Shown here: positions 2,410 through 34,348 of the stretch, piece after piece
Numbering within the stretch: position 1 is the first letter of the stretch
How the letters are laid out: every line of letters begins with the position of its first letter
Program-made: the position numbers and the translations under genes
Notes under the pieces: model-generated
Databases searched by the model: none
The model's input: only the letters and a program-made list of their open reading frames with translations
What the model was told of the DNA's origin: nothing
Virus record (IMG/VR): IMGVR_UViG_3300014205_000223
Coordinates: 3,875-67,874 of that record
DNA: 64,000 nucleotides
Strand: one strand, 5' to 3'
Origin: a virus
Lineage: Duplodnaviria > Caudoviricetes

Positions 2410-2586
2410 ATGAAAGAAATAATTGAGCAAATACGTGAATGTAATGATTGTGAATGGATTGGGTGGGCTTATGAATGCGTACATCCAAAGCATGTAGAAA
2501 GCTTATTATTATGTCCTGAATGCAATGAAACTACAACATTCATAACTCCACTGAGATGTATTGAAATGAGAGATAATATAAAATGA
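2410..2586 (+). CDS. small zinc-ribbon protein
   Basis: CNDC...CPEC pairs; ATG at 2410. Confidence 0.55.
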   Translation: MKEIIEQIRECNDCEWIGWAYECVHPKHVESLLLCPECNETTTFITPLRCIEMRDNIK

Positions 2587-2771
2587 ATCTCAACATAATT
2601 GAATATAGGCCAAAAGGCGGAATGTGCGCTAATTGTACAAAAATTAAGAATGATTGTAGCGACCTTGACTTTGCAAAGATGGATGTTATTGCAGAAGAGC
2701 ATTATTTTAGAAGAGTAGTAAATATTGTCAGATGCTGTGAATTTGAAAGGAAAACAAAGGCTGTCGCATAA
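2583..2771 (+). CDS. small Cys-rich phage protein
   Basis: Y.PKGGMCANC...CS.L.F..M.VI; coupled start; TAA stop lies within GCATAAC. Confidence 0.6.
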   Translation: MNLNIIEYRPKGGMCANCTKIKNDCSDLDFAKMDVIAEEHYFRRVVNIVRCCEFERKTKAVA

Positions 2772-2790
2772 CTTAACAATTATCACAACA

Positions 2791-2952
2791 ATGATTATAT
2801 TAACAATTACAGCAACAACGATATTCATCATCACATCACTGCCGGTTATCGGTGTAGCACTAGGTTTCGTGGCGTTAGGCTTTAAAGGTTTATGGGATTT
2901 GACGCATAGCTATTGCGGCTATGACTCAGGTTCAGACGATACGGGGTGTTGA
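2791..2952 (+). CDS. 53-aa membrane protein, copy 2 of the duplicated pair
   Basis: Same length as 2247-2408 and identical C-terminal half. Confidence 0.45.
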   Translation: MIILTITATTIFIITSLPVIGVALGFVALGFKGLWDLTHSYCGYDSGSDDTGC

Positions 2953-3018
2953 GATGAATAAAGATTATCCCCGCGCTCCTGTTGAGCGACGGGTTATGCA
3001 CAAACAACAGGACAAAAC

Positions 3019-3258
3019 ATGAAAACACCACGCGATAAATACATGAACGACCCGGAGTACCACGCCCTCGTTAATATGCTGGAGAGCTTTATTGAGCGAG
3101 CGCAATTTACCCCATCCGAATTGCGGGAAGCTTGCGTACTAGCGTGTATCAACTACGAAATGCGCCATGTGCGCGAGATGACTATTGATCCACGGACGGC
3201 AGAAGCACTCAGAGTACTGGATGAATTTACGACAAGGAAGCCTAGACGCGGCGCATAA
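3019..3258 (+). CDS. hypothetical protein in a cassette-like unit
   Basis: 79 aa with AGGA RBS; preceded by GTTATGC (2993) and stop inside GCATAAC (3253). Confidence 0.7.
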   Translation: MKTPRDKYMNDPEYHALVNMLESFIERAQFTPSELREACVLACINYEMRHVREMTIDPRTAEALRVLDEFTTRKPRRGA

Positions 3259-3347
3259 CGCCGTGTTAAGCGGGAAGCCGCCACACTGAACTTTAACCGC
3301 GCAAATGCGCAACATGGCGGCTTGTCCGCTTGAACTAAGAGTTATAC
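3253..3347 (-). other. attC-like recombination site (95 bp), oriented opposite to the flanking ORFs
   Basis: Minus strand reads GTATAAC-TCTTA-GTTCAAGCGG-AC-AAGCCGCCA...TGGCGGCTT-C-CCGCTTAAC-ACGGC-GTTATGC: R and L boxes, 5-nt spacers, an extra-helical base in the L box and a central stem, as in integron attC sites. Confidence 0.65.
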
Positions 3348-3364
3348 ATTTTTGAGGATGCGAG

Positions 3365-3565
3365 ATGGCGTTACGAGCAGAAAAAAGAAATGACGGGGTA
3401 ATTGAACTTTGGGAATTTTTTGAAGAAGGAGGCCCAATAGTACGGTGTTATCCTGACGGGAGAATTGAGTTGTTTGAAGTTCCGCAATATGGTGGGGAAG
3501 AGCGGCCTTATGGAAATTATCCAACACTATGCGCGGCTCTGAAAGAAGCCGAAACATGGACGTGA
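3365..3565 (+). CDS. hypothetical protein in a cassette-like unit
   Basis: 66 aa with GAGG RBS; flanked by GTTATACAT (3341) and ATGTATAAC (3565). Confidence 0.65.
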   Translation: MALRAEKRNDGVIELWEFFEEGGPIVRCYPDGRIELFEVPQYGGEERPYGNYPTLCAALKEAETWT

Positions 3566-3646
3566 TGTATAACGCTTAATTATACGACAGATTGTCGCAT
3601 AACCTAACTATTGTCTATTTTTACGACATTAAACAAAAGGTATTAT

Positions 3647-3817
3647 ATGAAAGAAATTATTACAGAATACAAAAACCAGGACGGACTCTGGTCATTTCGC
3701 ATACTGGACGGCCAAGATTGCTTGCTTGCCGACTCCGGCGATATGGGTTATGTCACCAAACGCATGATGCTGATAGCCCTGGTAGCTAAACTTGTTGAAC
3801 TAGGAGCCACGCCATGA
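3647..3817 (+). CDS. hypothetical protein
   Basis: ATG 3647 with AAGG RBS; MKEIITEYKNQDGLWSF...; coupled to the next ORF. Confidence 0.55.
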   Translation: MKEIITEYKNQDGLWSFRILDGQDCLLADSGDMGYVTKRMMLIALVAKLVELGATP

Positions 3818-4083
3818 TTTCCTTTACTCTTGATCAGCTCAATGTGTTTGCAAAAGAGTACACATCTATGCTGCACAAAGATTATCCGTTTTCCTATGAA
3901 CATTCCGTGCGCCACTACTCTATAGCGTTTGTTTCAGGTTTCGTTAAGTATCTGGAAACAATATCACAGGAACCATTAGTAGACCTTCCTCTTGAGTGTT
4001 GTGATGACAATCCCTGGGAAACACTAACAGCTAGAATAGCCCCGGTATTTCTCCGTGGGCATGACGACACATCAGGATTTTGA
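3814..4083 (+). CDS. hypothetical protein
   Basis: 89-aa ORF with ATGA coupling. Confidence 0.55.
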   Translation: MISFTLDQLNVFAKEYTSMLHKDYPFSYEHSVRHYSIAFVSGFVKYLETISQEPLVDLPLECCDDNPWETLTARIAPVFLRGHDDTSGF

Positions 4084-4738
4084 TATGAAAACTTGGAAAA
4101 TAGAAACAATAAGCGGCTTTGCTAAGTATAGTGTTTGGTATGTGCAATCTTGGTGGCCGGAAGAGCGATTCGATAGATTAAAATTTAAGGTAACGCCAAT
4201 ATGACGCACCCAACATTAAGTGAATTTACGCAACCTAAGAATGGCGACAAATACTGGGCCAAGGGCTTATTCAAGAAAGATGTAGAGCAACACACATGGG
4301 GAGGCGATCCGGTGGATATTTATCTTTTCAAAGCCAAAAAACTATTTTTAACCGAAGAAGACGCGAGGAAATCACTGTGAAAATAATAGCTAAATATGCA
4401 ATTTTCGTCCTGATAGGAATATTGCTGGCATCAAGAGGATTTAATCTTTTGCATGGTCTATGGTGGGTATGGACAATTGCATTAACTTTTGCCATATTTG
4501 CGCGAGATTGGGGTAGAAGCTAACATGGGAATTATAATTTTAGCAAAAAATCTAGTCGCATTTATGGTAATACTAGCATCTGGATACATTATTTTAAAAA
4601 GATGTGAGCGTAAATAATGTGGTTAATCAACAAAATCATAGTAGTAACCGTAGTCCTATTGCTGCTGATATATCTTGGCAGCTTAGAAGCCAGTAAATAT
4701 TTAATAAATAAATGCAACCTAGTTCTAGGAGAATACTG

Positions 4739-5656: not shown

Positions 5657-6180
5657 TGAAGCCTGAGTATGCAGGAGTTCAAGAATTTTCCGACATGACC
5701 GGCTTTAGTTACACGCAGTCATCACAGATATTAGTTAGAAGAATGGGCGATAAGCGCATTAAGGATGGCAAGACCGCGCTGTATCCTATGGAAGACCTTA
5801 CCGGCTTGGCAAACTACTATATCAATGGCAGAAAGCCTCAACAGCCACATGAACTCAGCCGTAAGGACATCATGAAGCAATACCGAGTTGGCAGTAAGGA
5901 GATAGTTGAGCTGATAGCGCACGAAGACTTCCCGAAGCCATGCCGGACATACATTGATATGGAAGGCAGCAAAGGCAACAGTTTCCAGTTATGGGACAGC
6001 AAGGAGCTGGAAGATATAGATGTGTACGAATTGTTGGACAAAGACGAGCCGGAAGACGCTGTAAAGCTACCATTCGTTTATTATGGTTTCAGGTTCAATG
6101 GCTACCTGATTGTATGTCCTGTAATGCACTTTAGATTAGGAAAAATTGATGAACAAGGTAACGATAGAATTAATCCGTGA
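5656..6180 (+). CDS. DNA-binding protein with AlpA/excisionase-like HTH
   Basis: LSRKDIMKQYRVG...EDFPKP...LWDSKEL resembles an AlpA/Xis winged HTH; a second HTH-like segment lies at the N-terminus. Confidence 0.5.
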   Translation: MKPEYAGVQEFSDMTGFSYTQSSQILVRRMGDKRIKDGKTALYPMEDLTGLANYYINGRKPQQPHELSRKDIMKQYRVGSKEIVELIAHEDFPKPCRTYIDMEGSKGNSFQLWDSKELEDIDVYELLDKDEPEDAVKLPFVYYGFRFNGYLIVCPVMHFRLGKIDEQGNDRINP

Positions 6181-6316
6181 ATGGATACAGGCAGAAATAA
6201 AAGCGCGCCTTGAGGCCATAGAAGAAGATAGCGACGGATACCGAGGATGTAGTAATCATGAACAAAAGGAAGCAGACCGATTGTTTAATGAAATAAAAAA
6301 AATGGTAGGCAACTGA
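6149..6316 (+). CDS. 55-aa hypothetical protein
   Basis: MNKVTIELIREWIQAEIKARLE...; TGATG coupling to the next gene; below the ORF-track cutoff. Confidence 0.5.
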   Translation: MNKVTIELIREWIQAEIKARLEAIEEDSDGYRGCSNHEQKEADRLFNEIKKMVGN

Positions 6317-6822
6317 TGGAAAATGAAATTATTATTTTAGTAGGAAATATAGCGTCCGGGAAAAGCACGCTAACCCGCAAATACGCTGCTGAAGGGTATC
6401 TTATAATTAATGATGATGCTATTGTGTCTGCGCTTCACGGAGGAGATGGAGGGGCATACGAAAAAACACTAAAACCGCTATATAAGGCTGTTGAGGATTG
6501 TATATTTTCACATGGCGCGGCACTTGGCAGAAGTATTGTTATAGACAGACCAAATATGAGCATATCTAATCGCAGAAGATACATAGGCATGGCGAAATCA
6601 AGGGATATGTCAGTTCGTGCTGTTGTAATGCCAATGCAAGATGTTTTAACGCACGCCACACGTAGATACAATACGGATAACAGAGGGCTTACGTTAACGG
6701 CATGGACGAAAGCAGCGATGAGAATAGCAAATAGCTATGAAGCACCTTCGCTTAATGAGGGGATAGATGAAATATGCTACCTATCTGGAATTAATGAAGT
6801 CAAAAAAATGGAAATCAACTGA
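6316..6822 (+). CDS. P-loop kinase (AAA_33 / polynucleotide kinase-like)
   Basis: Walker A GNIASGKST, IVID.PN....RRRY, R..R lid motif. Confidence 0.85.
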   Translation: MENEIIILVGNIASGKSTLTRKYAAEGYLIINDDAIVSALHGGDGGAYEKTLKPLYKAVEDCIFSHGAALGRSIVIDRPNMSISNRRRYIGMAKSRDMSVRAVVMPMQDVLTHATRRYNTDNRGLTLTAWTKAAMRIANSYEAPSLNEGIDEICYLSGINEVKKMEIN

Positions 6823-7463
6823 TGGCTACAAAGATAGAAGGTAAGATCGTGAGTCAAAAGGTTTTAACGGCGGCAGATAAGCCTGTAGAAACAATCCCCA
6901 TCATGAACAAAGAGATCAAGCGTGGTGAAATCCTCAACGGCAGCACTTACAAAGTTAAAGTGCCAAACGATGACAACTCAATGTACATCACCATCAACAA
7001 CATTGAAGTAGGCGGCAAAACTTACCCATTTGAGATATTCGCTAACTCGCGCAATATGTCCCAGTTCCAGTGGATAGTGGCATTAACACGGCTTATCTCT
7101 GCGGTATTCAGGAACGGCGATTCTTCGTTCATTACCGAAGAGCTTAAGCATGTATTCGACCCACGCGGAGGATTCTACCAAAAAGGCACGTTTCACCCCT
7201 CGCTTGTCGCCAAGATCGGCAGCATTATCGAACAGCACCTAGTCGCCATAGGAATTATCCAGCCGGTAGAAATGGAAGCCCATGTTAAAGCGATATTAGC
7301 TGAAAAAAGGGCGCAATTCGACGCACTACAGGGCGAAAAGCCGGAGGAAACGCTAAACTTCCCTGAAAAAGCCAAGTTATGCCCCAAATGCGGTGTTAAG
7401 GCGGTAGTTATCAGCGAGGGATGTACATTGTGTTTGAATTGTTCGGACTCTAAATGTGGCTAA
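6822..7463 (+). CDS. nrdJb: NrdJb-like class II ribonucleotide reductase C-terminal subunit (TSCPD-type) with Zn ribbon
   Basis: GSTYKVK, MYITIN, PFEIF.NS, QWIVALTRLISAVFR.G, EELK.VFDPRGG, C-terminal CPKCG...EGC..CL.C..SKCG. Confidence 0.8.
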   Translation: MATKIEGKIVSQKVLTAADKPVETIPIMNKEIKRGEILNGSTYKVKVPNDDNSMYITINNIEVGGKTYPFEIFANSRNMSQFQWIVALTRLISAVFRNGDSSFITEELKHVFDPRGGFYQKGTFHPSLVAKIGSIIEQHLVAIGIIQPVEMEAHVKAILAEKRAQFDALQGEKPEETLNFPEKAKLCPKCGVKAVVISEGCTLCLNCSDSKCG

Positions 7464-7756
7464 TAAACAACAAATGAATATAATCAAAAACCTTATCGAA
7501 GATACCCTACTCTGCATCATCCTTGCAATAGTGGGAATCATAGGCCCCATTGTTGGACTTTTTAACAAACATGCGAGAACAAAATGAGAATTTTATCTTG
7601 GGCAAATTTTACCTTTCCGGCAATCAATCTCTGGAATTTTCATAAACAATACCGAGACTTTGTAAAGCAAGTTCCCGACAGATCGCAATGCAAGCACCCT
7701 GAGCGTTCATGCAAATGGTGTTTTGATTATCATGAATGTAACTTTAGAGAGCCAAA

Positions 7757-11101: not shown

Positions 11102-11268
11102 TTGGCACGTTAATATTATGTGGAATAATTATATATATCGGGACATTCTTAGTATTTTGTGGAAAATGGTATGGAGGTATTCTTGTTTTATTGCCGCCAT
11201 TCGCACTAATGGTGTCACTATATTTTAAAAATGGTGGCTCTATATTTTAAAAAAGAGGATTTAAATAA

Positions 11269-11670: not shown

Positions 11671-12333
11671 ATGAGCATCATACTATTCGGGTCCACAAAG
11701 GGAGGTGTAGGCAAATCAACACTATGCGCCAATGTTGCCGTCGCACTTGCGGAACAAGCTTATGACTGTATGATCGTTGACGCTGATCAGCAGGCGAGTA
11801 TTACTGGATGGTGGGCTGACCGCAAGATTGATTACCCCGACAAAACAAAGATATGGTGCATTCAAAAGTACCTGGAAATAGATACAACTCTGGAGGACTT
11901 GTCTACCCGATACCAGCATGTTTTAGTTGATGTTCCTGGGCGATCATCAGAAGAACTAAGGTCGGCATTAAGCGTAGCTGACATAGTGATAATACCAGTC
12001 AAGCCAAGTAAGTTTGACATGGATTCATTTCATCAAATGAATATCTTAATCAGCAAAGCTCGCGGCATCAATAAAAAGATGCAATGCTACGCAGTCATAA
12101 ACTTAGCGCCAACGAATCCGAAGGGTACAGAGATAGAAGAGGCACGTAGTGTTATTGCACTTTACCCCGATGTAACCCAATTACAGCAAAATATATTTGA
12201 CAGAAAATGTTACCGTGATAGCATAGCACTAGGATTAAGTGTGCTTGAGCTGCCTGAAAAATCAAACAGCATCAAGTTGGCACAAAATGAAATTAGAGCA
12301 CTTGTTAAAGAGGTAATAAAAAATGACTACTAA
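11671..12333 (+). CDS. parA: ParA family partition ATPase (short, type Ib-like)
   Basis: Deviant Walker A KGGVGKST, IVDAD.Q.S, LVDVPG, ADIVIIPVKPS.FD, R..YR.S...GLSV.E. Confidence 0.92.
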   Translation: MSIILFGSTKGGVGKSTLCANVAVALAEQAYDCMIVDADQQASITGWWADRKIDYPDKTKIWCIQKYLEIDTTLEDLSTRYQHVLVDVPGRSSEELRSALSVADIVIIPVKPSKFDMDSFHQMNILISKARGINKKMQCYAVINLAPTNPKGTEIEEARSVIALYPDVTQLQQNIFDRKCYRDSIALGLSVLELPEKSNSIKLAQNEIRALVKEVIKNDY

Positions 12334-24769: not shown

Positions 24770-27700
24770 TTAAGCCGCTGCTAAACATGCGATAAAATCC
24801 TGATACCCTATGATTTTATCGCGTATTTCCGCTATTTTAGCCTTAACGCCAAATGAATCGCTTTGTACCTTAGCTCCCATCTTAGCCAAAGCGTTAAGGT
24901 CGGCTGCGGTAAGTTCGTCTGGAGAAAAGCCCATTTTCAACATAGCCATACGAATTGAGGCTATCAGATCCTTAATGAGTTTGACGACATGAGCAGCGAG
25001 TGATTTAGGATTGGTGTTGTACAGGGTTATTTGATACGCCATAAATTCTTCAAGCTGGTCTGCAATCTGTGTCTTGGCGTTAATAACACGCTTAGCTGCT
25101 GCATTTTCCTGTGGTGATGCGTTGCCCTCAACCGCAAGAGAAAAACGCTCCTGCATGGCTTCCTGGAAGGAATTGACTGCTGCTTTCAGGATTGGATTGG
25201 TGGCGAGGGCACGATGAAAAAGCTCATGTAACAGAATGCCATGCACATTACCTTTATTAATTGAATCGGCAATCAGATAAATCGTACCATTGTGATAGAG
25301 AGCCTCAACACCTGATAGATCATCACCATTTTTGATTGCCTGACTTAAAGCATTGCCTTTTCCCAATAACTCTGTCGGAAGCTGGCTAACCGATTGCACC
25401 ACAACCAGCTTATTTGCGCCAAGCATCTTGCGCACCATTCTAGGAAGCCATGACTTAACTTCCGCAATTGTTGATTTTTCCGTGTGACTTGAGCCTTTGC
25501 TGAATATTCCCTTAAGACCGCCTTGTGTGACTAGCGAATTTGCCCTAGATAAAACGTGTTCCAGTATTCTGGGTCTTTCGCTGCTCTCGCTTGATATAAG
25601 GGAGCGGATGAAAATTCCTCGACGAGTCGTAGCCTCACCTGCTCTTGCGTTTCCCGCCAATGCTTCAGCTCCTGTTCGGTCATAATTTCGCCCGTTCGGT
25701 TGTGATGAATCATTCGTGTAAAATCGTCGTTTGTTAAAATCGTATCTTGCATTTTTAATCTCCGGGAATGAGTGTTCAATGTTTGTTACGAAAGTATGAA
25801 TTAAAGCCTTGGTTCTGTCAACATCATTTCCAGTCCATTTTAACGGCGCTATCCCAAGCTTTGCATTACCCTTTAACTGAGTCTCACCCGGTTCCATAAA
25901 ATCAGTGGTTCCGAAGCGCAATGCCAGTGATAGCATAGCTGACGTGCGTCTAATGGTAGCATCATCACTCATTGAAGTCGGATCAGCAATAAATACATTG
26001 CCCGTATTGTAGGCATAGTTTCCTACCGCAGCATATACCGCATCACCACGTTCGCCGGTGCTAAATTTGCTAACATCAATCCATAGCTCATTGCCTCTGA
26101 CATAAACATCAAACCGCTTGCCAAGTGCGTTTCTAAATAACACTTTCTTATCTGCGCCAAAATCTTCATCAGGATTTTGAATAGCTTCCTCTCCGATATA
26201 TTTAAAGTCTGGCGCTATATCCTTCATTACTACCTGTATTGTAGTCGCCTGACTTACAGGATAACGGAACATCTCATCAACTTCCGCAAGCTCATTTAGT
26301 ACTTCTTGAGCAAAGGCCGTATCATTTGACTTGCTAAACTTATTTCCTTCACGGTACTTGACAAGATCCTTCTTCTGGAGTACACTTCTTTTAGCGTAGT
26401 TGTTGCGCCCCTGCCGACTTGGGAAAACCGTCTTGTTACGGATATTGGGGCCTGCACTGCGGCTTCCAGAGCCTTGAGTAAGGTAGGTATTAGCACCAAG
26501 CAATTGCAGCTTGGCAGTCCTGCGCAATTCAAGGCTTTTTTCTTTGTCAAAATAACGCAATAACCCGTCTTGCAGCCATCTATTGATCACTTTATTATCT
26601 GTTTGCGAATCATAGCCGTTGACCAGAAAATTAGCAGTTAAGCCGCCTACATCTGCATTTGGCTCTATGATAATCTTTATCAGTTTGCCATTGAGAGTTT
26701 CTGGTGCGATAACCACAAGCCTGCCATCAACAGTATCGGAATCGAATACTAATGATGGGTCATCCATCCATTCCGGTATTTTCTTCCAATGATCTTCTTT
26801 GAGTCCGTGATTGTACTTGCCATCAATAACCTTGCTTTCATTTAGATAAACCGGCTGGTTATTGTATCCTAGCATATCTAGCATATCAGATTTATCCAAT
26901 ACCTTAATACCATGAATATTTGCTTTTTCATTTGCGAATAACTCATCTATCCTGGCCTCGTAGTTTTCCTTAGTTGTTTGCGAACGGCTGAATTTTAGCG
27001 AATCGTCTCCTGCCTGCTCTGCCTTTTCAATAACAATCAGTCTAGCATTTACCGATGTATTAACTGGTAATGAAGGATCATTAAAGGTTCCAGATGGAAG
27101 TTTTTCCTCAGTGCCGCCTACTTGCTCCAGCCAATCCCTGAACGCTTGCGCTTTCTTATCGCTGCCAAAGAATACACCTTCGCCCATAATAGCTACTAAA
27201 CGTCCTCCAGGATTTAGTAAATCATAAGCATGTTGTACATGGGCTGAATCTCTTCTATCGCCAAAAGGAGGATTCATGATAATCCTATCGTACCCGCCCT
27301 CGTTGAACTCCATGAAATCACTACCAACTACATTAAACCCCTTGGCTTCCAGCAATTCCTTACGGCTGTTTGATAGCTCGATAACATCCGGTTCCACTCC
27401 TGCTTCACGGATTCTTTCGGCAATATGGCCCATCCCGGCTGAAGGCTCAAGAACGGTCATACCTTCCTCAATACCTGCGGTTGCAATCATTTCATCTGCA
27501 ACATTAGCAGGAGTTGGGAAGAAATCTAAGCCGTCATTTTGACGACCGACCATAGCCCTTTCCATTTCCTTGATCTTGTCGGCTTCTTTTGGGGCTTCAC
27601 GCAAACCGATAAATTCACGAATGGCAGCACGTAATTCGGCGGGTGTTTCAATCCCCAAGGCTACCAGTCTTTTGCGCTTGTCAAAAGCATTTTCTAACTG

Positions 27701-30700
27701 CCAAGGTACGGATATTTTAGCGCCGCGTCTTTCGGCTTTGCCTATCTTTTGAACCAGCTCATTACCAAAGTCTGCTGATAGTGTGATGCGCTTATCGTTA
27801 TCACCTTGCCAAATACCTTGCTTAATCGCTTCGGCTGGACTTAGGATAATCAAATTCTCGCCACGTTTGAACGGCAATACAATGGCCTTACCCTTAAACC
27901 CGCCTTTCAGTATCGCGGCTTCAGCAAGCGGCTTGGTAGGTATAGATGCTAATGCCGTGCCACCTTTCATGGTGAATGTGTGAACCTTGTTTAAGTTCTC
28001 TTTGGCAAATTTCAAATAGGCTGCGTTGACATCATCAGCAACTTCCATCATGCGCTTGCCAAGCAGTTTGGTTCCTTCGGTTTCCAACAATGCACGTCCT
28101 AAACGGGAAAGGTCTGAACGCATAGCTGTGTAATTAGGGAACTCTACATAATCGGCTGTTTCCTTAGTGGGCGATTGTTGTCTTAATTTTTCCTGTTCAC
28201 CATATGTTTCGTGTTTTGTTGTAGCCTCAATGTAATGTGCGCTATGTACGAATCCCTGCAACATTTCAACCTGTGTTTTTTGACGTACCAAGTCAAGCAG
28301 TTTGGCGGTTCCGTTATCAATAGCGGTTGCAATATTACGCATTGTCTTAGCCATAGACTTATCATACTCTGCGTTTGCTTCAGCTCTTGCAGCAATACCT
28401 ATGCGTCTGGTTGTGTTTGCTCTGCGGTCACGGCTTAACGATTCATCAGCCTTATCTTCCAGCCTATCAGCCATTTCGTTTAAGCGTTCAACTGCGCTTT
28501 GACTCTTGTCATCGGCAAAGGAATCACGTCTTTCCTGCATAACTTCTTTAGCTTGCTCTACATCACCACCTAAAAACTTTAAGAAAGCGTCGGCATTGTC
28601 GCGTGTTTTAAACGTGAATCCTGGTACTGCGCCATTTCCCTTATACGATGAGTAATAACCACCCAAACGCTTTGCTGTAGCATTCCATTGATTATAAATT
28701 TCACGGTCTACGCGGTCATTTGCCTTAACTACGAATAAAGGCTCTCCGGTTTTGGTATGTGTAGTTTCAACGATCTGGCCTTCCGTGGTTTGCGCTACCG
28801 CTCTAACTTCAGTTTTTTGTTGCGAGGCTTTGGCTTGGCGTTCTGTTCTGGACTTATCTGCCGCTAGAGTGTCGAATTGTTCACGCTGCTCCGGTGTTAA
28901 TTCCATACGAGCATTAGCGTAGGTCTTGCCTTCGGTACGTACCTTATAGCCCATGATACGAACATAATCATCCAGAGTTTGCGGGTTCTCCATTCCAGCT
29001 ACAACTTCTTTTTGTTTGGTAAGGAGTTGTTCTTCCGCTTGTTTTACTTCCCTTGCATAATTCTCAATATCCGCATCGGTAGTTTTATTAACGTCATTAC
29101 GCAATGAATTGACAAACGCATCTTTGCCCATACCATAACTAAACATTCCGTCTTGTAGCCTATATCCCATTAATATTTGCTGATAAGCATTGCTAACGTA
29201 TCTGTCTTTTTTGTCACTACTATTTAAATAACCGGCACCATAACGCTTAACAATTTCATCCTTAGATAATTTATTCAGCTCGGCATAGACAGCCTCTTTA
29301 TTAGCAACAAGGTTTTCAAATTCTGACTTTAATTCTTCCGCTGTTATATTGCCGGTGTTGATGCGTTTATTAATCTCGGTGTGCTTATCCAATAATGCGA
29401 CGGGTTCCGGCTTTGCTACAGGTTTTCCTTTAGCATTAACCTTGGCGTGTGTTTTGGTTATTTTGGTCAGGTCTTTAGTAACCGCCGATGGTGAACTTTC
29501 TTGAAGAGGCGTTGTCGGTGTTGATTCTTGCTCTATCTTCTTTTGTGTAAGTTCATGTAAAATTCCAGTAGATTTAAAAGTTGATGCTAATCCTAAATCC
29601 ATTTTATATTTATCAGACTGTTCCAAACTAAGCATGTGATCCGTAAGTTGGAACGCTCTACGCTTAGTTTCTTTATTTGCATTATTATTATTTAAGACTG
29701 CATAAGCTGTTCCACTTATTAAATCATTATTATCTTTAATGAGTTCCAGTCTATCCATTACGTTGGATAATTCTTTAGATGAATTTGAAACATCTGTTAT
29801 TTGCCTTAATATACTGTTCTTGCGCAGTATGTCTTGCTCAGAATCGTAAACTTCTGTCCATTTTTTAGGTGTATTATTTTGGAACATTGGGGCGCTTTCT
29901 TGTGGCGCTGGCAGTGTTGTTGCTTGACCGTTGCTTGATTCTAATTCAGTTGTAAAGTTATTCTTTACAACTGCTGGTTTTACTTCCTGCTCTTTTTTGC
30001 CTTTGATGGCTATTGTTTCTTTTATAATAGCCGCTATACGCTTCCCTGTTTCTGTTTCAGGTGTATATTTCTTTGGTTTAATGTCAGCTAAAGAACCATT
30101 CTTTTGTGTTGTATGACTGCCAGCAATCCCCTTACCAATATCAGATAGTAAATTATGCAGAGATTCACTAGATGTTTCTCCGTGTACACCATAAAATGCC
30201 TCGTCATAACTCAAACCTTTATCCATGAGTTTTGCGATATTTATTAAATTATCCCTGCCTTTTTTTCTAGTTTCGCTTTGATTAGCATGTTCGCCAATCC
30301 GTTGAATTGCGGCATCAAGGTCTTTTCTAATCTGCTTCTGTTCGGTGTGATCTACTTCCTGCTCCTTTTTCCCTTGGTCTTTTTGGTTTTCTGTATTGAT
30401 CGTGGTTGTGTTCTGGCTTTGCTCAATTGGTTGTTCCTGGGTTAATGGTTTGGTAATGGTTTTAGGCGCAGGCGCAATACCCCATTTTCCAGTAGGCATC
30501 TTCTGCGCAACATGATCGTTCGCGTTAGCCTCGGTCGCTACTTTGGGACTGGCTATGGCTTTGTTGGCATAATCTTCAGTGTTGTAACGGTATGGCTTGC
30601 TGGTTTTTGGGTTCAGGATAAACGGTAATACGCCGCCATCCTGTTGTACTAGTGCTGGTTTTACGTTAGGTAAAACTTTCTGTGCGGAGACATTAGACGG

Positions 30701-33700
30701 TTGAACTTGTACCGATCCAGTTTCGTCATTAATACCTGCTGTCTTTTGTGTGTCCAGCACAGACTGCGCTGCGCTATCAGTTTCCTGATTATTCTTGGCC
30801 GTTTGTGTTTTCGTATCATTTTGTAAGTCCGGGTAATCTGCAAATAACTTATCTCGCTGCTTAATGGCTGTGTCTAACCTTAACTGCCTATCTTTAACGC
30901 TTTTATCTTTCTCTTGATCGCTTACTCTTTCGTTGGTAGATCGGCCCCAATTAACCTCGTTTTGCGCCCGATCTATTTCAGCATTAATAGCTTTAATAGC
31001 AACGGTTCCTTTAGCGTTTTTTACCGCCTTTTGCTCATCTTCCTGTTCTTTTAATCCTTTAAGTACTTTTGCGCTATATTCTTCACTCTGTTTTGCCAGT
31101 TCAGCTTCTTTTACTGCGTCTTTTTCAATAGCGTTTTCACCGTAATGCTTGGCAAAATGGTACTGTTTACCCGTATCCTGACTATCAATAACGTCCTTCG
31201 GTATCTTATTCCCGGCTTTTGCACTCGCTTCTATAGCCGCATAATGTTCGTCGATAAGATGACTTTTCATATTATCGAAGTCGCTTTTATTGCCTATTTC
31301 TTTCTCTGCATAGGCAAGGTATTCGGGTAAAGTTTGTTGCCAAGGCTGTTTTAATCCCTCAGATAAATCTCCATTCTGGTTGGATGGCTGCGCTTGTTCG
31401 CTCTTTTGTGCATTGTACTTTTGTCTAAGATATTCACCAACAACATCAATTTTGTCATCATCTATATGTTCTATTTGTGATGGCGTATATTCGCCCACAA
31501 CATCATTCATTGCTGTCAGATTAACCAGCCTTCCAGCTCTGGTGCTTATTCTTCTCTGTTCTTCTACACTACCGTTTTTAGCATTAGCATTGGTATAACC
31601 TGTAGACGGTTTTTTAATTTCCTGCTTGACTTCTACGGTACTTCCACGGTCAACTTCCACGGCAGGTTGTTTACTTGTAATATCAGCATTGTAAGTATCT
31701 GATAGATTTACTCTTGTTGTAAAATCATCACCAGGAAATTTCACTTCTGCTACATCGCCATTATTTCTAATGGAGTGGACAATAGCTTTACCTTCTTTAA
31801 CCAATCCCCTTTGAGAAAGTTTTTGATCCTTAGCTGTGAGATTGATTTCTGTCCCAAACCATTTATCTTCTTCCTCTGGTTTTGTTCCAGTAAACGGGTT
31901 TAAGCCCTCATCACCAGTTTTTGCCACCACTTCTTTCGACTGTCCTGCTTCAGCAATCTTTTCAGTTCCGGGTGCAAATGAACTTTCTCCTGGTGTTCCT
32001 GGTTGTGTTTCTGTAGTTTGAGTAGTTTGTTCTTTAGCGTCATTCAATGCCTTTTGTGGTAATGTTAAAACAGGACTGTCATTGTTTACCTTAGAAAATC
32101 CCCTAGCTTCATCCTGCATTGTTTTGCCGTTTGCCGCTTGAATGGTAACTCGAACATTATTCGTATCCCCCAAGCCAGAAAAATAGTTCTCGGCATCTAT
32201 GAGCTTCCAGGGATGCGGAAAGTCATTTGGCGCTCCGGCATACGTTTTGTAGACAGTATCCCCGATCTCCATTGGTTCATCGAGAGCAGTAGAACTTCCT
32301 TCCGCATATAACTTTTTGCCGTTAAAAAACCCAGTACCTGTTTCTATGGATGGATGCAGCATGTTAAATGCCTCGTTATACCCTTTTCGGTCTAGCGATG
32401 ACAGATAGCTTTTTTGCTCAGTGGTTAAACTCGTCCTATCCAGGTTATAGGATATGTCTTTATTTTCTAGCAGCCCTTTTGCTTCTTGCCCTTGTTCGGC
32501 ATTGGCATCTTGGGCATTGGTTTCTTCTTTGCGGCCATTTGTAATTTCCTCTTGTGGTGGTTGGATTGGTTTCTGTAACTCATTATGTGTGGCAGCTAAA
32601 CCAGAAGCCACATCATCTTGCTTATCACCAGCGACATCAAGTTGTCCAGGTGTTGATTCCTGTCCATTGAGTAAATCGCCAGTCTGGGCATTAGATATTG
32701 ATTCAATTCGTCCATTATATAAGGGCTCATTTTGTTTAGTCTCGTTTAGTTGTGAATCCTGATTTACCGCATCTAGGGCTGTTTTAGGTTGTAATAATCC
32801 ACCTAATGATGCAAATGGCTTGTTAGATACTTCACCTGCTTGATAGGGTATATCTGTATAACCCAAATTATCTCTGAATTTCTGCGCACGGGATCTTCTT
32901 TCGTTCTCAAGCTCTATGCGTTTTTTACGATATTCTTTTACCTGCTCAGGAGTAGCATCAGGATGTGTTTCCATTGCTTTATATTCGTTCTCCTTACGCT
33001 GTAAATCTTCCTGCTCTTGCTGGTGAAATGCTTTGGCTTTTGAATCTTGTGCGCCTGTTTCTTTTGCTACAGGTGTTTCCCATGTGCCTGACAAAGGATT
33101 ATAACCACCGGGTTTGTATTGGCTATCTATTGCGCTCTGTATATCCTGTCCTGGTACAGTGTTGTTGGCTACAATCGCCTCAGCATCCGGGTTAATTTTG
33201 TATTCTGGAGATTGCCATTGTGATTGATTAGTTTGTGCTGCTGCCCTAGCTAACGGGCCTTGCGGTTTTTGCGTATAACCTTGATATGCTCCAGCTCCTC
33301 CACCTAATGCTGCGAATGGAGCTGTTGCAATCATAGTTTGCTTGGCTGTATCAGATGCAGTTTGTTCAGGGAATCCATGCCTTTGCATGATAGGATTTTG
33401 TAATTGACGCGTAATTTCTTCCTCGCCCATTTCTGTTAATACTGACGATCCTGCTTTAGCTAAACCAGTTGCCGCAGCCCTTACTAACGGTGATGCTAAC
33501 GTGCTAATGCCTTTAGCAACTTTACCTATAGGTGTTGCTAATATTATTGCTTCAGCAATATTTCCTGCTGTTTCAGGCAATGCTTCTGAATAACCTATCT
33601 TAGATGTATCCCCAGTTGCATTTAGTTCATTTTGTAAGGCTATAGACTGCGCCTGTGTTAATGGAGATAATCCCTTTGACTGTAATTTATCATTTTCTTT

Positions 33701-34348
33701 GGCTATGGTATCCCTGACAAACTGGTTTTCAGCAGATCGTTTCATACCTAATAAGCCAAGTCCAGCCCCAGCAAGACCTCCAACTGCCGTACCAATAGGG
33801 CCAAATACTGATCCTATGGCTGCTCCCGCCATTGTTGGAGCCATACCAGCTATTGACCCTGACAAACTTCCCGCTGTTTGCCTGATGTCTTTTTCTGTGG
33901 CTAATCCACCCAATACAGGAGCATTAGCATTCTGTCCACTAATAAAATTGGCGTTTAATCCCTTTTGATCTTGCTGAATTGTATCCAGTATGTTGCTTTC
34001 ATCAAATGGTGTCGCTCCTTCTACAGATGACGCAACGTAAGAAGGAATGCCCTTTACTGCTTGTAGTAAGGTTTGCCCATAAGCTCCGAGTGTTCCAGCA
34101 GGTTTTCTTGGAGCCTCCATTGCGCTAGTATTCAGCCCATTCTTCCTGCCATGCTCTATAATTTCGGCATCTGATTTATCGGCAAAGGCAGGCAATTGCC
34201 GTACCTGTCCCAAGGTTAGTGGAGCAGGGGCTTGTGCCTCCATTGCGCTAGTGTCAAGTCCGTTGCGCTTGCCGTGCGCAAGTATTTCATTATCGGTTAA
34301 GCTGGCAAAAGCAGGGAGTGTACGAGCTTGTTCAAAGGTAAGCGCCAT
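24770..34348 (-). CDS. giant polyvalent virion/ejection protein (3192 aa) with N6-adenine DNA methyltransferase, MuF-C-like domain and HExxH motif
   Basis: FFPTP, LEPSAG.G and MNPPF (about 27530-27020); WKKIPEW.DDP..VF.S.T..GRL (MuF-C-like, about 26990-26340); LHELFH (about 25220); Gly/Ala-rich N-terminal helices typical of ejection proteins. Confidence 0.8.
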   Translation of the reverse strand: MALTFEQARTLPAFASLTDNEILAHGKRNGLDTSAMEAQAPAPLTLGQVRQLPAFADKSDAEIIEHGRKNGLNTSAMEAPRKPAGTLGAYGQTLLQAVKGIPSYVASSVEGATPFDESNILDTIQQDQKGLNANFISGQNANAPVLGGLATEKDIRQTAGSLSGSIAGMAPTMAGAAIGSVFGPIGTAVGGLAGAGLGLLGMKRSAENQFVRDTIAKENDKLQSKGLSPLTQAQSIALQNELNATGDTSKIGYSEALPETAGNIAEAIILATPIGKVAKGISTLASPLVRAAATGLAKAGSSVLTEMGEEEITRQLQNPIMQRHGFPEQTASDTAKQTMIATAPFAALGGGAGAYQGYTQKPQGPLARAAAQTNQSQWQSPEYKINPDAEAIVANNTVPGQDIQSAIDSQYKPGGYNPLSGTWETPVAKETGAQDSKAKAFHQQEQEDLQRKENEYKAMETHPDATPEQVKEYRKKRIELENERRSRAQKFRDNLGYTDIPYQAGEVSNKPFASLGGLLQPKTALDAVNQDSQLNETKQNEPLYNGRIESISNAQTGDLLNGQESTPGQLDVAGDKQDDVASGLAATHNELQKPIQPPQEEITNGRKEETNAQDANAEQGQEAKGLLENKDISYNLDRTSLTTEQKSYLSSLDRKGYNEAFNMLHPSIETGTGFFNGKKLYAEGSSTALDEPMEIGDTVYKTYAGAPNDFPHPWKLIDAENYFSGLGDTNNVRVTIQAANGKTMQDEARGFSKVNNDSPVLTLPQKALNDAKEQTTQTTETQPGTPGESSFAPGTEKIAEAGQSKEVVAKTGDEGLNPFTGTKPEEEDKWFGTEINLTAKDQKLSQRGLVKEGKAIVHSIRNNGDVAEVKFPGDDFTTRVNLSDTYNADITSKQPAVEVDRGSTVEVKQEIKKPSTGYTNANAKNGSVEEQRRISTRAGRLVNLTAMNDVVGEYTPSQIEHIDDDKIDVVGEYLRQKYNAQKSEQAQPSNQNGDLSEGLKQPWQQTLPEYLAYAEKEIGNKSDFDNMKSHLIDEHYAAIEASAKAGNKIPKDVIDSQDTGKQYHFAKHYGENAIEKDAVKEAELAKQSEEYSAKVLKGLKEQEDEQKAVKNAKGTVAIKAINAEIDRAQNEVNWGRSTNERVSDQEKDKSVKDRQLRLDTAIKQRDKLFADYPDLQNDTKTQTAKNNQETDSAAQSVLDTQKTAGINDETGSVQVQPSNVSAQKVLPNVKPALVQQDGGVLPFILNPKTSKPYRYNTEDYANKAIASPKVATEANANDHVAQKMPTGKWGIAPAPKTITKPLTQEQPIEQSQNTTTINTENQKDQGKKEQEVDHTEQKQIRKDLDAAIQRIGEHANQSETRKKGRDNLINIAKLMDKGLSYDEAFYGVHGETSSESLHNLLSDIGKGIAGSHTTQKNGSLADIKPKKYTPETETGKRIAAIIKETIAIKGKKEQEVKPAVVKNNFTTELESSNGQATTLPAPQESAPMFQNNTPKKWTEVYDSEQDILRKNSILRQITDVSNSSKELSNVMDRLELIKDNNDLISGTAYAVLNNNNANKETKRRAFQLTDHMLSLEQSDKYKMDLGLASTFKSTGILHELTQKKIEQESTPTTPLQESSPSAVTKDLTKITKTHAKVNAKGKPVAKPEPVALLDKHTEINKRINTGNITAEELKSEFENLVANKEAVYAELNKLSKDEIVKRYGAGYLNSSDKKDRYVSNAYQQILMGYRLQDGMFSYGMGKDAFVNSLRNDVNKTTDADIENYAREVKQAEEQLLTKQKEVVAGMENPQTLDDYVRIMGYKVRTEGKTYANARMELTPEQREQFDTLAADKSRTERQAKASQQKTEVRAVAQTTEGQIVETTHTKTGEPLFVVKANDRVDREIYNQWNATAKRLGGYYSSYKGNGAVPGFTFKTRDNADAFLKFLGGDVEQAKEVMQERRDSFADDKSQSAVERLNEMADRLEDKADESLSRDRRANTTRRIGIAARAEANAEYDKSMAKTMRNIATAIDNGTAKLLDLVRQKTQVEMLQGFVHSAHYIEATTKHETYGEQEKLRQQSPTKETADYVEFPNYTAMRSDLSRLGRALLETEGTKLLGKRMMEVADDVNAAYLKFAKENLNKVHTFTMKGGTALASIPTKPLAEAAILKGGFKGKAIVLPFKRGENLIILSPAEAIKQGIWQGDNDKRITLSADFGNELVQKIGKAERRGAKISVPWQLENAFDKRKRLVALGIETPAELRAAIREFIGLREAPKEADKIKEMERAMVGRQNDGLDFFPTPANVADEMIATAGIEEGMTVLEPSAGMGHIAERIREAGVEPDVIELSNSRKELLEAKGFNVVGSDFMEFNEGGYDRIIMNPPFGDRRDSAHVQHAYDLLNPGGRLVAIMGEGVFFGSDKKAQAFRDWLEQVGGTEEKLPSGTFNDPSLPVNTSVNARLIVIEKAEQAGDDSLKFSRSQTTKENYEARIDELFANEKANIHGIKVLDKSDMLDMLGYNNQPVYLNESKVIDGKYNHGLKEDHWKKIPEWMDDPSLVFDSDTVDGRLVVIAPETLNGKLIKIIIEPNADVGGLTANFLVNGYDSQTDNKVINRWLQDGLLRYFDKEKSLELRRTAKLQLLGANTYLTQGSGSRSAGPNIRNKTVFPSRQGRNNYAKRSVLQKKDLVKYREGNKFSKSNDTAFAQEVLNELAEVDEMFRYPVSQATTIQVVMKDIAPDFKYIGEEAIQNPDEDFGADKKVLFRNALGKRFDVYVRGNELWIDVSKFSTGERGDAVYAAVGNYAYNTGNVFIADPTSMSDDATIRRTSAMLSLALRFGTTDFMEPGETQLKGNAKLGIAPLKWTGNDVDRTKALIHTFVTNIEHSFPEIKNARYDFNKRRFYTNDSSQPNGRNYDRTGAEALAGNARAGEATTRRGIFIRSLISSESSERPRILEHVLSRANSLVTQGGLKGIFSKGSSHTEKSTIAEVKSWLPRMVRKMLGANKLVVVQSVSQLPTELLGKGNALSQAIKNGDDLSGVEALYHNGTIYLIADSINKGNVHGILLHELFHRALATNPILKAAVNSFQEAMQERFSLAVEGNASPQENAAAKRVINAKTQIADQLEEFMAYQITLYNTNPKSLAAHVVKLIKDLIASIRMAMLKMGFSPDELTAADLNALAKMGAKVQSDSFGVKAKIAEIRDKIIGYQDFIACLAAA

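Follow-up and report, generated by a model that had tools for sequence, protein, structure and literature searches.

Integron-type elements in phage genomes

Integrons have been treated as bacterial devices, and the origin of their cassettes is still an open question. In the definition used by IntegronFinder, a CALIN consists of at least two detectable attC sites lying close together with no intI. CALINs have been described in both temperate and virulent phages (Qi, Rajabal, Ghaly, Tetu, & Gillings, 2023; PMC9892861), and the integrase IntI1, which can recombine attCs from virulent phages, did so with five of the six phage attCs tested (PMC9892861). The phage locus described here resembles these CALINs in that attCs and cassettes lie in a phage genome without intI, a host IntI being expected to act in trans; it differs from them in comprising one intact attC and two relics, and in carrying cargo from phage gene families common to several unrelated uncultured phages.

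With class 1 attCs (aadA1, aadA2, and others in plasmid NZ_OM144974), the phage sites share the order of the boxes, a 5–6-nt unpaired spacer and two bulged bases, a G at 3 bp from that spacer and a T another 6 bp inward, and the L-box consensus of the two is almost letter-identical. The variable loop is longer in the phage site than in the class 1 attC (95 nt vs. 60), and the relation to the gene is turned around: a class 1 attC follows its gene and its bottom strand is antisense, whereas the phage attC precedes its gene and its bottom strand is sense. The sedentary chromosomal integron of a Methylobacter sp. metagenome-assembled genome (MAG; G007) has attCs of the same class, one of them identical to the phage DNA at 24 of 26 positions (2971–2996), but its array, unlike the phage locus, is accompanied by IntI and is of canonical polarity in all seven classifiable cassettes.

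T4-type phages offer another comparison, for their promoter-early stem-loop (PeSL) regulatory cassettes, reportedly described by Arbiol, Comeau and Krisch in 2010. A PeSL combines a promoter with a hairpin and is presumed to recombine by homology. As at the present locus, small accessory phage genes lie between repeated stem-loops and are shuffled as modules among relatives; unlike phage attCs, PeSLs lack the R/L box architecture as well as bulges and complementary own ends.

Clusters of attCs in integrase-less phages are thus already known (since 2023). The reversed polarity and the phage-type cargo are what is new, the locus below being a modest example; neither reversed gene polarity nor phage-family cargo common among phages is described in PMC9892861 or in the further literature searched.

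The phage genome and the cassette locus

The window, by which we mean the whole 64,000-nt stretch of DNA analyzed, covers bases 3875–67874 of a 67.9-kb IMG/VR virus record estimated to be 87% complete. On its + strand the phage encodes a DHFR, an ERF-type annealase, a YqaJ-type exonuclease and a ParA-like ATPase, and on its − strand tail, internal-virion and giant methyltransferase-like proteins. Among the latter is a 3192-aa protein (window 24770–34348, −) whose residues 1624–2447 match both phrog_11358 and giant “DNA methyltransferase” PHROGs. A reading of the phage as N4-like, with hairpins serving as virion-RNA-polymerase promoters, was dropped, as this protein resembles phrog_11358 and the methyltransferase-like giants and not a virion RNA polymerase. 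The locus itself lies in a block of small + strand ORFs; the original prediction placed it in an early region, a label that is not established. Its features are as follows (window coordinates; an arrow marks the predicted crossover).

2897–2999, +: decayed attC upstream of ORF 3019–3258; 11.5 bits with model R2, 24/26 match to a Methylobacter attC
3019–3258, +: cassette gene 1 (P0001, 79 aa), between GTTATGC (2993–2999) and GCATAAC (3253–3259)
3253–3347, +: intact attC, 95 nt, with R box, hairpin and mirror half; found by models R1 and R2 and by folding
3253–3259, +: 5′ R box of the intact attC, GCATAA↓C, which includes the TAA stop of ORF 3019–3258
3341–3349, +: 3′ R box GTTATAC(AT) of the intact attC, GTTATACAT (box GTTATAC, 3341–3347)
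3365–3565, +: cassette gene 2 (P0002, 66 aa), between GTTATACAT (3341–3349) and ATGTATAAC (3565–3573)
3565–3573, +: R box (AT)GTATAA↓C, ATGTATAAC, overlapping the TGA stop of ORF 3365–3565
3565–3625, +: degenerate downstream site with R box, spacer GCTTA and short hairpin; at most 4 bits with R1

We consider it very probable that 2897–3625 is the remnant of an integron-type cassette array in an integrase-less phage, and that the two ORFs are R-box-bounded cassettes of reversed polarity. The locus is regarded as the relic of an array because only one of its three sites is intact and the other two have decayed.

The boxes at the ends of each gene carry much of this reading. Those of gene 1 (GTTATGC/GCATAAC) are perfect complements over 7 nt and those of gene 2 (GTTATACAT/ATGTATAAC) over 9 nt, while a complement within 300 nt would arise by chance about 2% of the time for a given 7-mer and about 0.1% for a 9-mer; both pairs fall exactly at the ORF borders. 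The pair that faces each other across the intact attC (GCATAAC/GTTATAC) has one mismatch. Every box coordinate in the original prediction holds, as do the own-end complementarity that it saw (perfect over 7 and 9 nt) and the single differing base of its facing pair. As GCATAAC alone occurs in the window at chance frequency (10 seen, 11.6 expected), the boxes carry meaning only through their context, which is strongly non-random.

The intact attC site

The element at 3253–3347 has the layout of an attC throughout. First, inverted R boxes of the form nnnnAAC...GTTnnnn stand at its two ends. Second, the L-box stem is set off from them by unpaired spacers of 5 nt each (GCCGT and TAAGA). Third, extra-helical bases are found at the characteristic positions: from the spacer inward run a 3-bp L box, a bulged G, 6 bp, and a 1 × 2 internal loop (G opposite GT) that leaves a net one extra base on the 3′ arm, followed by the rest of the stem, a variable loop and the mirror half. 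In cmsearch alignments this bulge geometry equals that of the aadA1 and aadA2 bottom strands, and since the net extra bases sit on the 3′ arm of the + strand, the + strand is the bottom strand of this attC. Finally, the element matches a covariance model trained on bona fide attCs (R2, below). As DNA, the 95-nt imperfect hairpin folds at −28.4 kcal/mol (z = −4.7), and none of 200 shuffled sequences is as stable.

Two covariance models were cross-tested. R1 was built from phage elements only, taken on the ORF-sense strand. Fifteen phage elements align to one architecture, with AAC and GTT invariant in all 15: the 5′ half of the consensus reads nnnnAAC, a 5–6-nt spacer, a 3-bp stem, a bulged G and 6 bp, and the inner part a conserved GTC with a bulged T, a variable loop, and a mirror half ending in GTTnnnn; 7 of the 12 predicted pairs show compensatory changes. 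On 3253–3347, R1 scores 51.9 bits on the + strand versus 15.3 on the −. Control integrons, namely the class 1 integron of plasmid NZ_OM144974 and a second one, were located with the aadA1 attC sequence, which has 100% matches in many plasmids, NC_002134 among them. From these R1 recovers all the true attCs (six of six and two of two, respectively), every match lying opposite to the resistance genes at 19–52 bits, versus 9–16 bits on the sense strand. R2 was built from the bottom strands of bona fide attCs, seven of class 1 and six of the Methylobacter integron. Run over both strands of the whole window, it places its best match at 3253–3347 on the + strand (38 bits, E = 2.6e-6) and its second-best at 2897–2999, also on the + strand and ending exactly at 2999 (11.5 bits, E = 3), and gives no match at E ≤ 10 on the − strand.

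By sequence and structure, then, the element is an attC, and a functional-looking one, with a predicted crossover in its 5′ R box between 3258 and 3259. The original prediction had described a full 95-bp attC-like hairpin between the ORFs, inverted as judged from its extra-helical base, and had proposed a covariance-model run on both strands to check it. R2, which is independent of the phage elements, finds a genuine attC there, on the + strand only, and both models agree that this is the bottom strand. No second full attC was found in the 67.9-kb record by the covariance models or by our own motif-plus-fold scanner, and Rfam families at gathering thresholds gave no match.

Could the hairpin instead be purely regulatory (a terminator, an RNA-processing site or an mRNA-stabilizing element), the genes being shuffled by homologous recombination between repeated motifs, as proposed for T4-type cassettes? 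It does stand between two co-oriented genes, and a weak terminator activity has been ascribed to attC sites (PMC9892861). A scan for intrinsic terminators (G+C-rich stem with an immediate T-run), however, reports none at 3253–3347, where the stem ends at about 3335 and a T-run begins only at about 3350; the terminator that the original prediction allowed as an alternative is therefore not supported. A regulatory role would also leave unexplained the box complementarity across each gene, the conserved bulge geometry, and the ability of R1 to detect true attCs. We regard this explanation as very unlikely.

Decayed sites on either side

Under the reading of the locus as a relic array, the flanking sites are what remains of two more attCs. 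Of the upstream one (2897–2999) only the 3′ part, about 2953–2999, is recognizable, with a loop remnant, the 3′ arm TTGAGC, the 5-nt spacer GACGG and the R box GTTATGC (2993–2999); its 5′ part is overlapped by the end of ORF 2725–2952. Positions 2971–2996 are 24/26 identical to an attC beside the Methylobacter IntI (E = 6e-5, the best match in the window). The half-site TTGA-7nt-GTT that the original prediction had pointed out at 2982–2995 is indeed present, as the decayed 3′ part of this attC. It is the sole match to TTGARCGNNNNGTT in the window, where 0.19 are expected, and at least one match turns up in 17 of 100 shuffles; the pattern is weak by itself, so its value comes from the Methylobacter match.

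The downstream site (3565–3625) has its R box and spacer (GCTTA), followed by a short 10-bp hairpin at about 3577–3602 and no GTT box, and scores at most 4 bits with R1. The locus consequently falls outside the CALIN definition given above, one site passing as detectable and the second reaching 11.5 bits; nor, with no PF00589 match in the phage record, does it form a complete integron, in which intI, with attI and Pc, lies beside the array.

A 16-mer, TGTCGCATAACyTAAC, occurs at 2762–2777 and 3593–3608 (15/16 identical, 831 bp apart) and so brackets the cassette block; at the degenerate downstream site the second copy makes up the short hairpin's 3′ arm. Such a repeat is at about chance level within 1 kb and is given no weight as evidence; it may be a promoter, an old recombination core, or nothing.

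The two cassette genes and their relatives

P0001, the product of gene 1, has relatives on 18 viral contigs (56–89% identity) and no match in Pfam or PHROG; its nearest Atlas clusters are 89–100% viral, and it belongs to a phage-type gene family. In several contigs its relatives are flanked by GTTnnnn/nnnnAAC boxes of other sequence together with a similar hairpin, and relatives occur also in phages without any attC. P0002, the product of gene 2, has 24 homologues (52–83% identity); used as a query against the Methylobacter MAG and four related phage records, it finds no match. In two contigs (L049 and L051) its relatives have + strand attCs on both sides and perfect GTTAGGC/GCCTAAC ends, in a third (L052) an attC abuts the start codon, and elsewhere the gene is found without attC. 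Relatives of both ORFs therefore sit as attC-bounded cassettes beside differing neighbors.

Traces of cassette movement in phage arrays

Phage contigs with relatives of either ORF carry arrays of 2–13 attC sites, among them the following.

L002: 13 attC sites within 6.7 kb
L026: 11 attC sites
L004: 9 attC sites
L003: 7 attC sites
L018: 4 attC sites
L017: 3 attC sites

With both models all sites in these six contigs lie on the gene-sense strand, and all six contigs qualify as CALINs. L002 is a real phage contig, with genes for a portal, a large terminase and a primase-helicase.

If cassettes have been excised and reinserted by IntI at AA↓C (G↓TT), complementarity between the two ends of each cassette is the expected footprint. 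We compared, in the phage arrays, the 3′ box of each attC with the 5′ box of the attC that follows it, over the four variable positions. These own ends are perfectly complementary in 29 of 41 cassettes and imperfect in the other 12, whereas 5.8% of non-adjacent box pairs are perfect (binomial p of about 5e-27 for 29/41) and the two boxes of one and the same element are perfectly complementary in 9 of 48.

Homology borders drawn by BLAST agree with this footprint. The P0001 copies of L002 and L003 are 95% identical, and their homology ends 1–2 nt past AA↓C. The pairs L002 2523–2603/L004 4236–4317 and L004/L017 begin at the 5′ box or up to about 10 nt upstream of it, and their homology carries on across the hairpin, past the 3′ box and into the next gene; the hairpin thus belongs with the downstream gene, in line with the strand assignment. 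Some cassettes do not behave as tidy units: neither of the hairpins flanking gene 1 is common to its L002 and L003 copies, and the hairpin closest to 3253–3347 (L026 6033–6129) precedes a different gene. Searches with the flanking genes, and megablast of 2500–4200 against GenBank phages (no match), found no close relative differing by one cassette.

Two further observations concern these arrays. L003 contains three near-identical 90-nt attC hairpins (4236–4325, 4572–4661 and 7491–7580) that have a common 3′ box, GTTGGGC, and three different 5′ boxes, which would be expected from crossover in the 5′ box. In L026 a PAPS-reductase-like gene (phrog_424; 6149–6904) forms a cassette whose flanking attC ends match perfectly (GTTATGC/GCATAAC).

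Reversed polarity

The strand that carries both ORFs is the integron bottom strand, and each attC precedes its gene. Canonical cassettes have the gene before the attC and on the top strand; both genes here are on the bottom-strand side, and the control integrons show the arrangement opposite to that of the phage cassettes. For the arrays at large, polarity was called from the strand carrying an ORF that fills at least 65% of the cassette.

Phage arrays: 19 cassettes sense to the bottom strand, 7 antisense
Methylobacter chromosomal arrays: 0 cassettes sense to the bottom strand, 7 antisense

The difference is significant (Fisher p = 8e-4), though the counts are noisy, as G+C-rich DNA has antisense ORFs; the strand of the two window genes is set by protein conservation and is firmer than the ORF-fill measure. 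ORF stops falling in the boxes were also tried as a strand test and set aside, since TAAC/GTTA yields stops in both directions and does not discriminate. The reversal is not universal, in that arrays with the same gene family (P0001) in L007 and L008 score best in canonical polarity. In these contigs (L008 3229–5554 and L007 243–2249) the sites around the P0001 homologue are of a divergent attC type with 7-nt spacers, scoring 16–28 bits. The P0001 family accordingly occurs in cassettes of both polarities as well as without attC.

As for what the reversal might bring, in Vibrio folding and excision are far easier for bottom strands that lie on the lagging-strand template (PMC13108822). By analogy, the reversed polarity might put the bottom strand on the lagging-strand template, if phage replication runs with transcription.

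Polarity also bears on whether any exchange took place in phage DNA at all. The locus might have been carried over passively, as a piece of a bacterial integron array gained by illegitimate or homologous recombination and decaying since, with no integrase-mediated exchange in the phage. That two of the three sites have decayed, and that the upstream remnant is of the bacterial chromosomal-integron type, would fit such a history, and routes of this kind are discussed by Qi et al. (PMC9892861). The cargo, on the other hand, is of a phage-type family that attC-free phages have too, the polarity of the genes is the reverse of that in the bacterial array (19 of 26 phage cassettes against none of seven), and unrelated phages hold long arrays whose cassette ends are still perfectly matched. 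Passive carry-over consequently seems improbable to us.

The probable host and its integrase

A scan of genome collections found a P0001 relative on a phage-like contig (C212, made up of L026 and L038) of the Methylobacter sp. MAG. The contig encodes a replication initiator, a small terminase, a portal, a major head protein, and an internal virion protein of the same family as the one in the window, and has at least 11 reversed attC sites between the replication genes and the terminase. The MAG as a whole yields 38 R1 matches. Its IntI (L037 4256–5230; TIGR02249, 494.9 bits against a cut-off of 265) lies beside an array of homogeneous 89–90-nt attCs in canonical polarity (L036 1–8662 and L037 1–5230), and one cassette attC of the phage-like contig (L026 8440–8529) is of this chromosomal 90-nt type. 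Because the upstream decayed attC of the window is of the same lineage's chromosomal-integron type, the host of our phage is likely Methylobacter-like; the link rests on one MAG, in which the phage-like contig may be mis-binned.

The phage itself appears to bring no integrase. The claim in the original prediction that the window lacks an integron integrase stands and extends further, the whole 67.9-kb record having no match to PF00589 (the Phage_integrase domain) at E ≤ 1; an integrase in the missing part is conceivable, as the record is 87% complete. The original prediction had also suggested looking for IntI in genome and host, and the outcome is a phage without PF00589 and a plausible host lineage, represented by the Methylobacter MAG, with IntI. 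Since no integrase was found in the record, one may ask whether the hairpins are worked by a recombinase encoded by the phage, either of non-tyrosine type or within the 13% of the genome that is missing. Yet nothing, bulge spacing included, sets the sites apart from IntI substrates, and likewise no tyrosine recombinase (PF00589) was found in five related contigs, of which one is 94% complete. Of the explanations weighed here we give this one the least credence, and its probability is very small indeed.

A host IntI acting in trans is the economical explanation, given a phage without integrase and a likely host lineage with both an IntI and the same type of attC. We infer that cassettes were inserted or exchanged by a host integron integrase working on folded single-stranded + strand DNA. 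The + strand would fold when single-stranded during infection, and the host IntI would cut between A and C of the 5′ box. Cassettes would then be exchanged as units of the form C-hairpin-GTTnnnn-RBS-gene-nnnnAA, with the crossover (AA↓C) just after the stop codon. At the present locus a cassette could still be taken up at the one intact attC, while attC × attC excision of either gene is now unlikely. The proposal in the original prediction that the phage shuffles or captures small genes through a host IntI thus gains support from the own-end matches in the arrays, the differing neighbors and the lack of a phage integrase, with the qualification that this locus is a relic.

Phages as possible traders of cassettes

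The same genes are found with and without attC in different phages, and one site matches the integron type of the likely host. It can now be tested whether phages trade accessory genes via host integrases, and whether phages are a source or a sink of cassettes. A broader idea, which we advance only tentatively, is that phages keep their own pool of reverse-polarity cassettes, borrow the host IntI during infection, and so exchange small accessory or counter-defence genes, both among unrelated phages and with the integron of the host chromosome. If this is true, the integron would be a phage-wide gene-exchange system, beyond occasional bacterial cargo. The type of an attC may further serve as a clue to the host of an uncultured phage.

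Elsewhere in the window, a 22-nt unit, AATGGTGkCwCTATATTTTAAA, stands in two tandem copies at 11208–11251, about 420 nt upstream of the ParA-like gene (11671–12333), and could be a partition or operator site.
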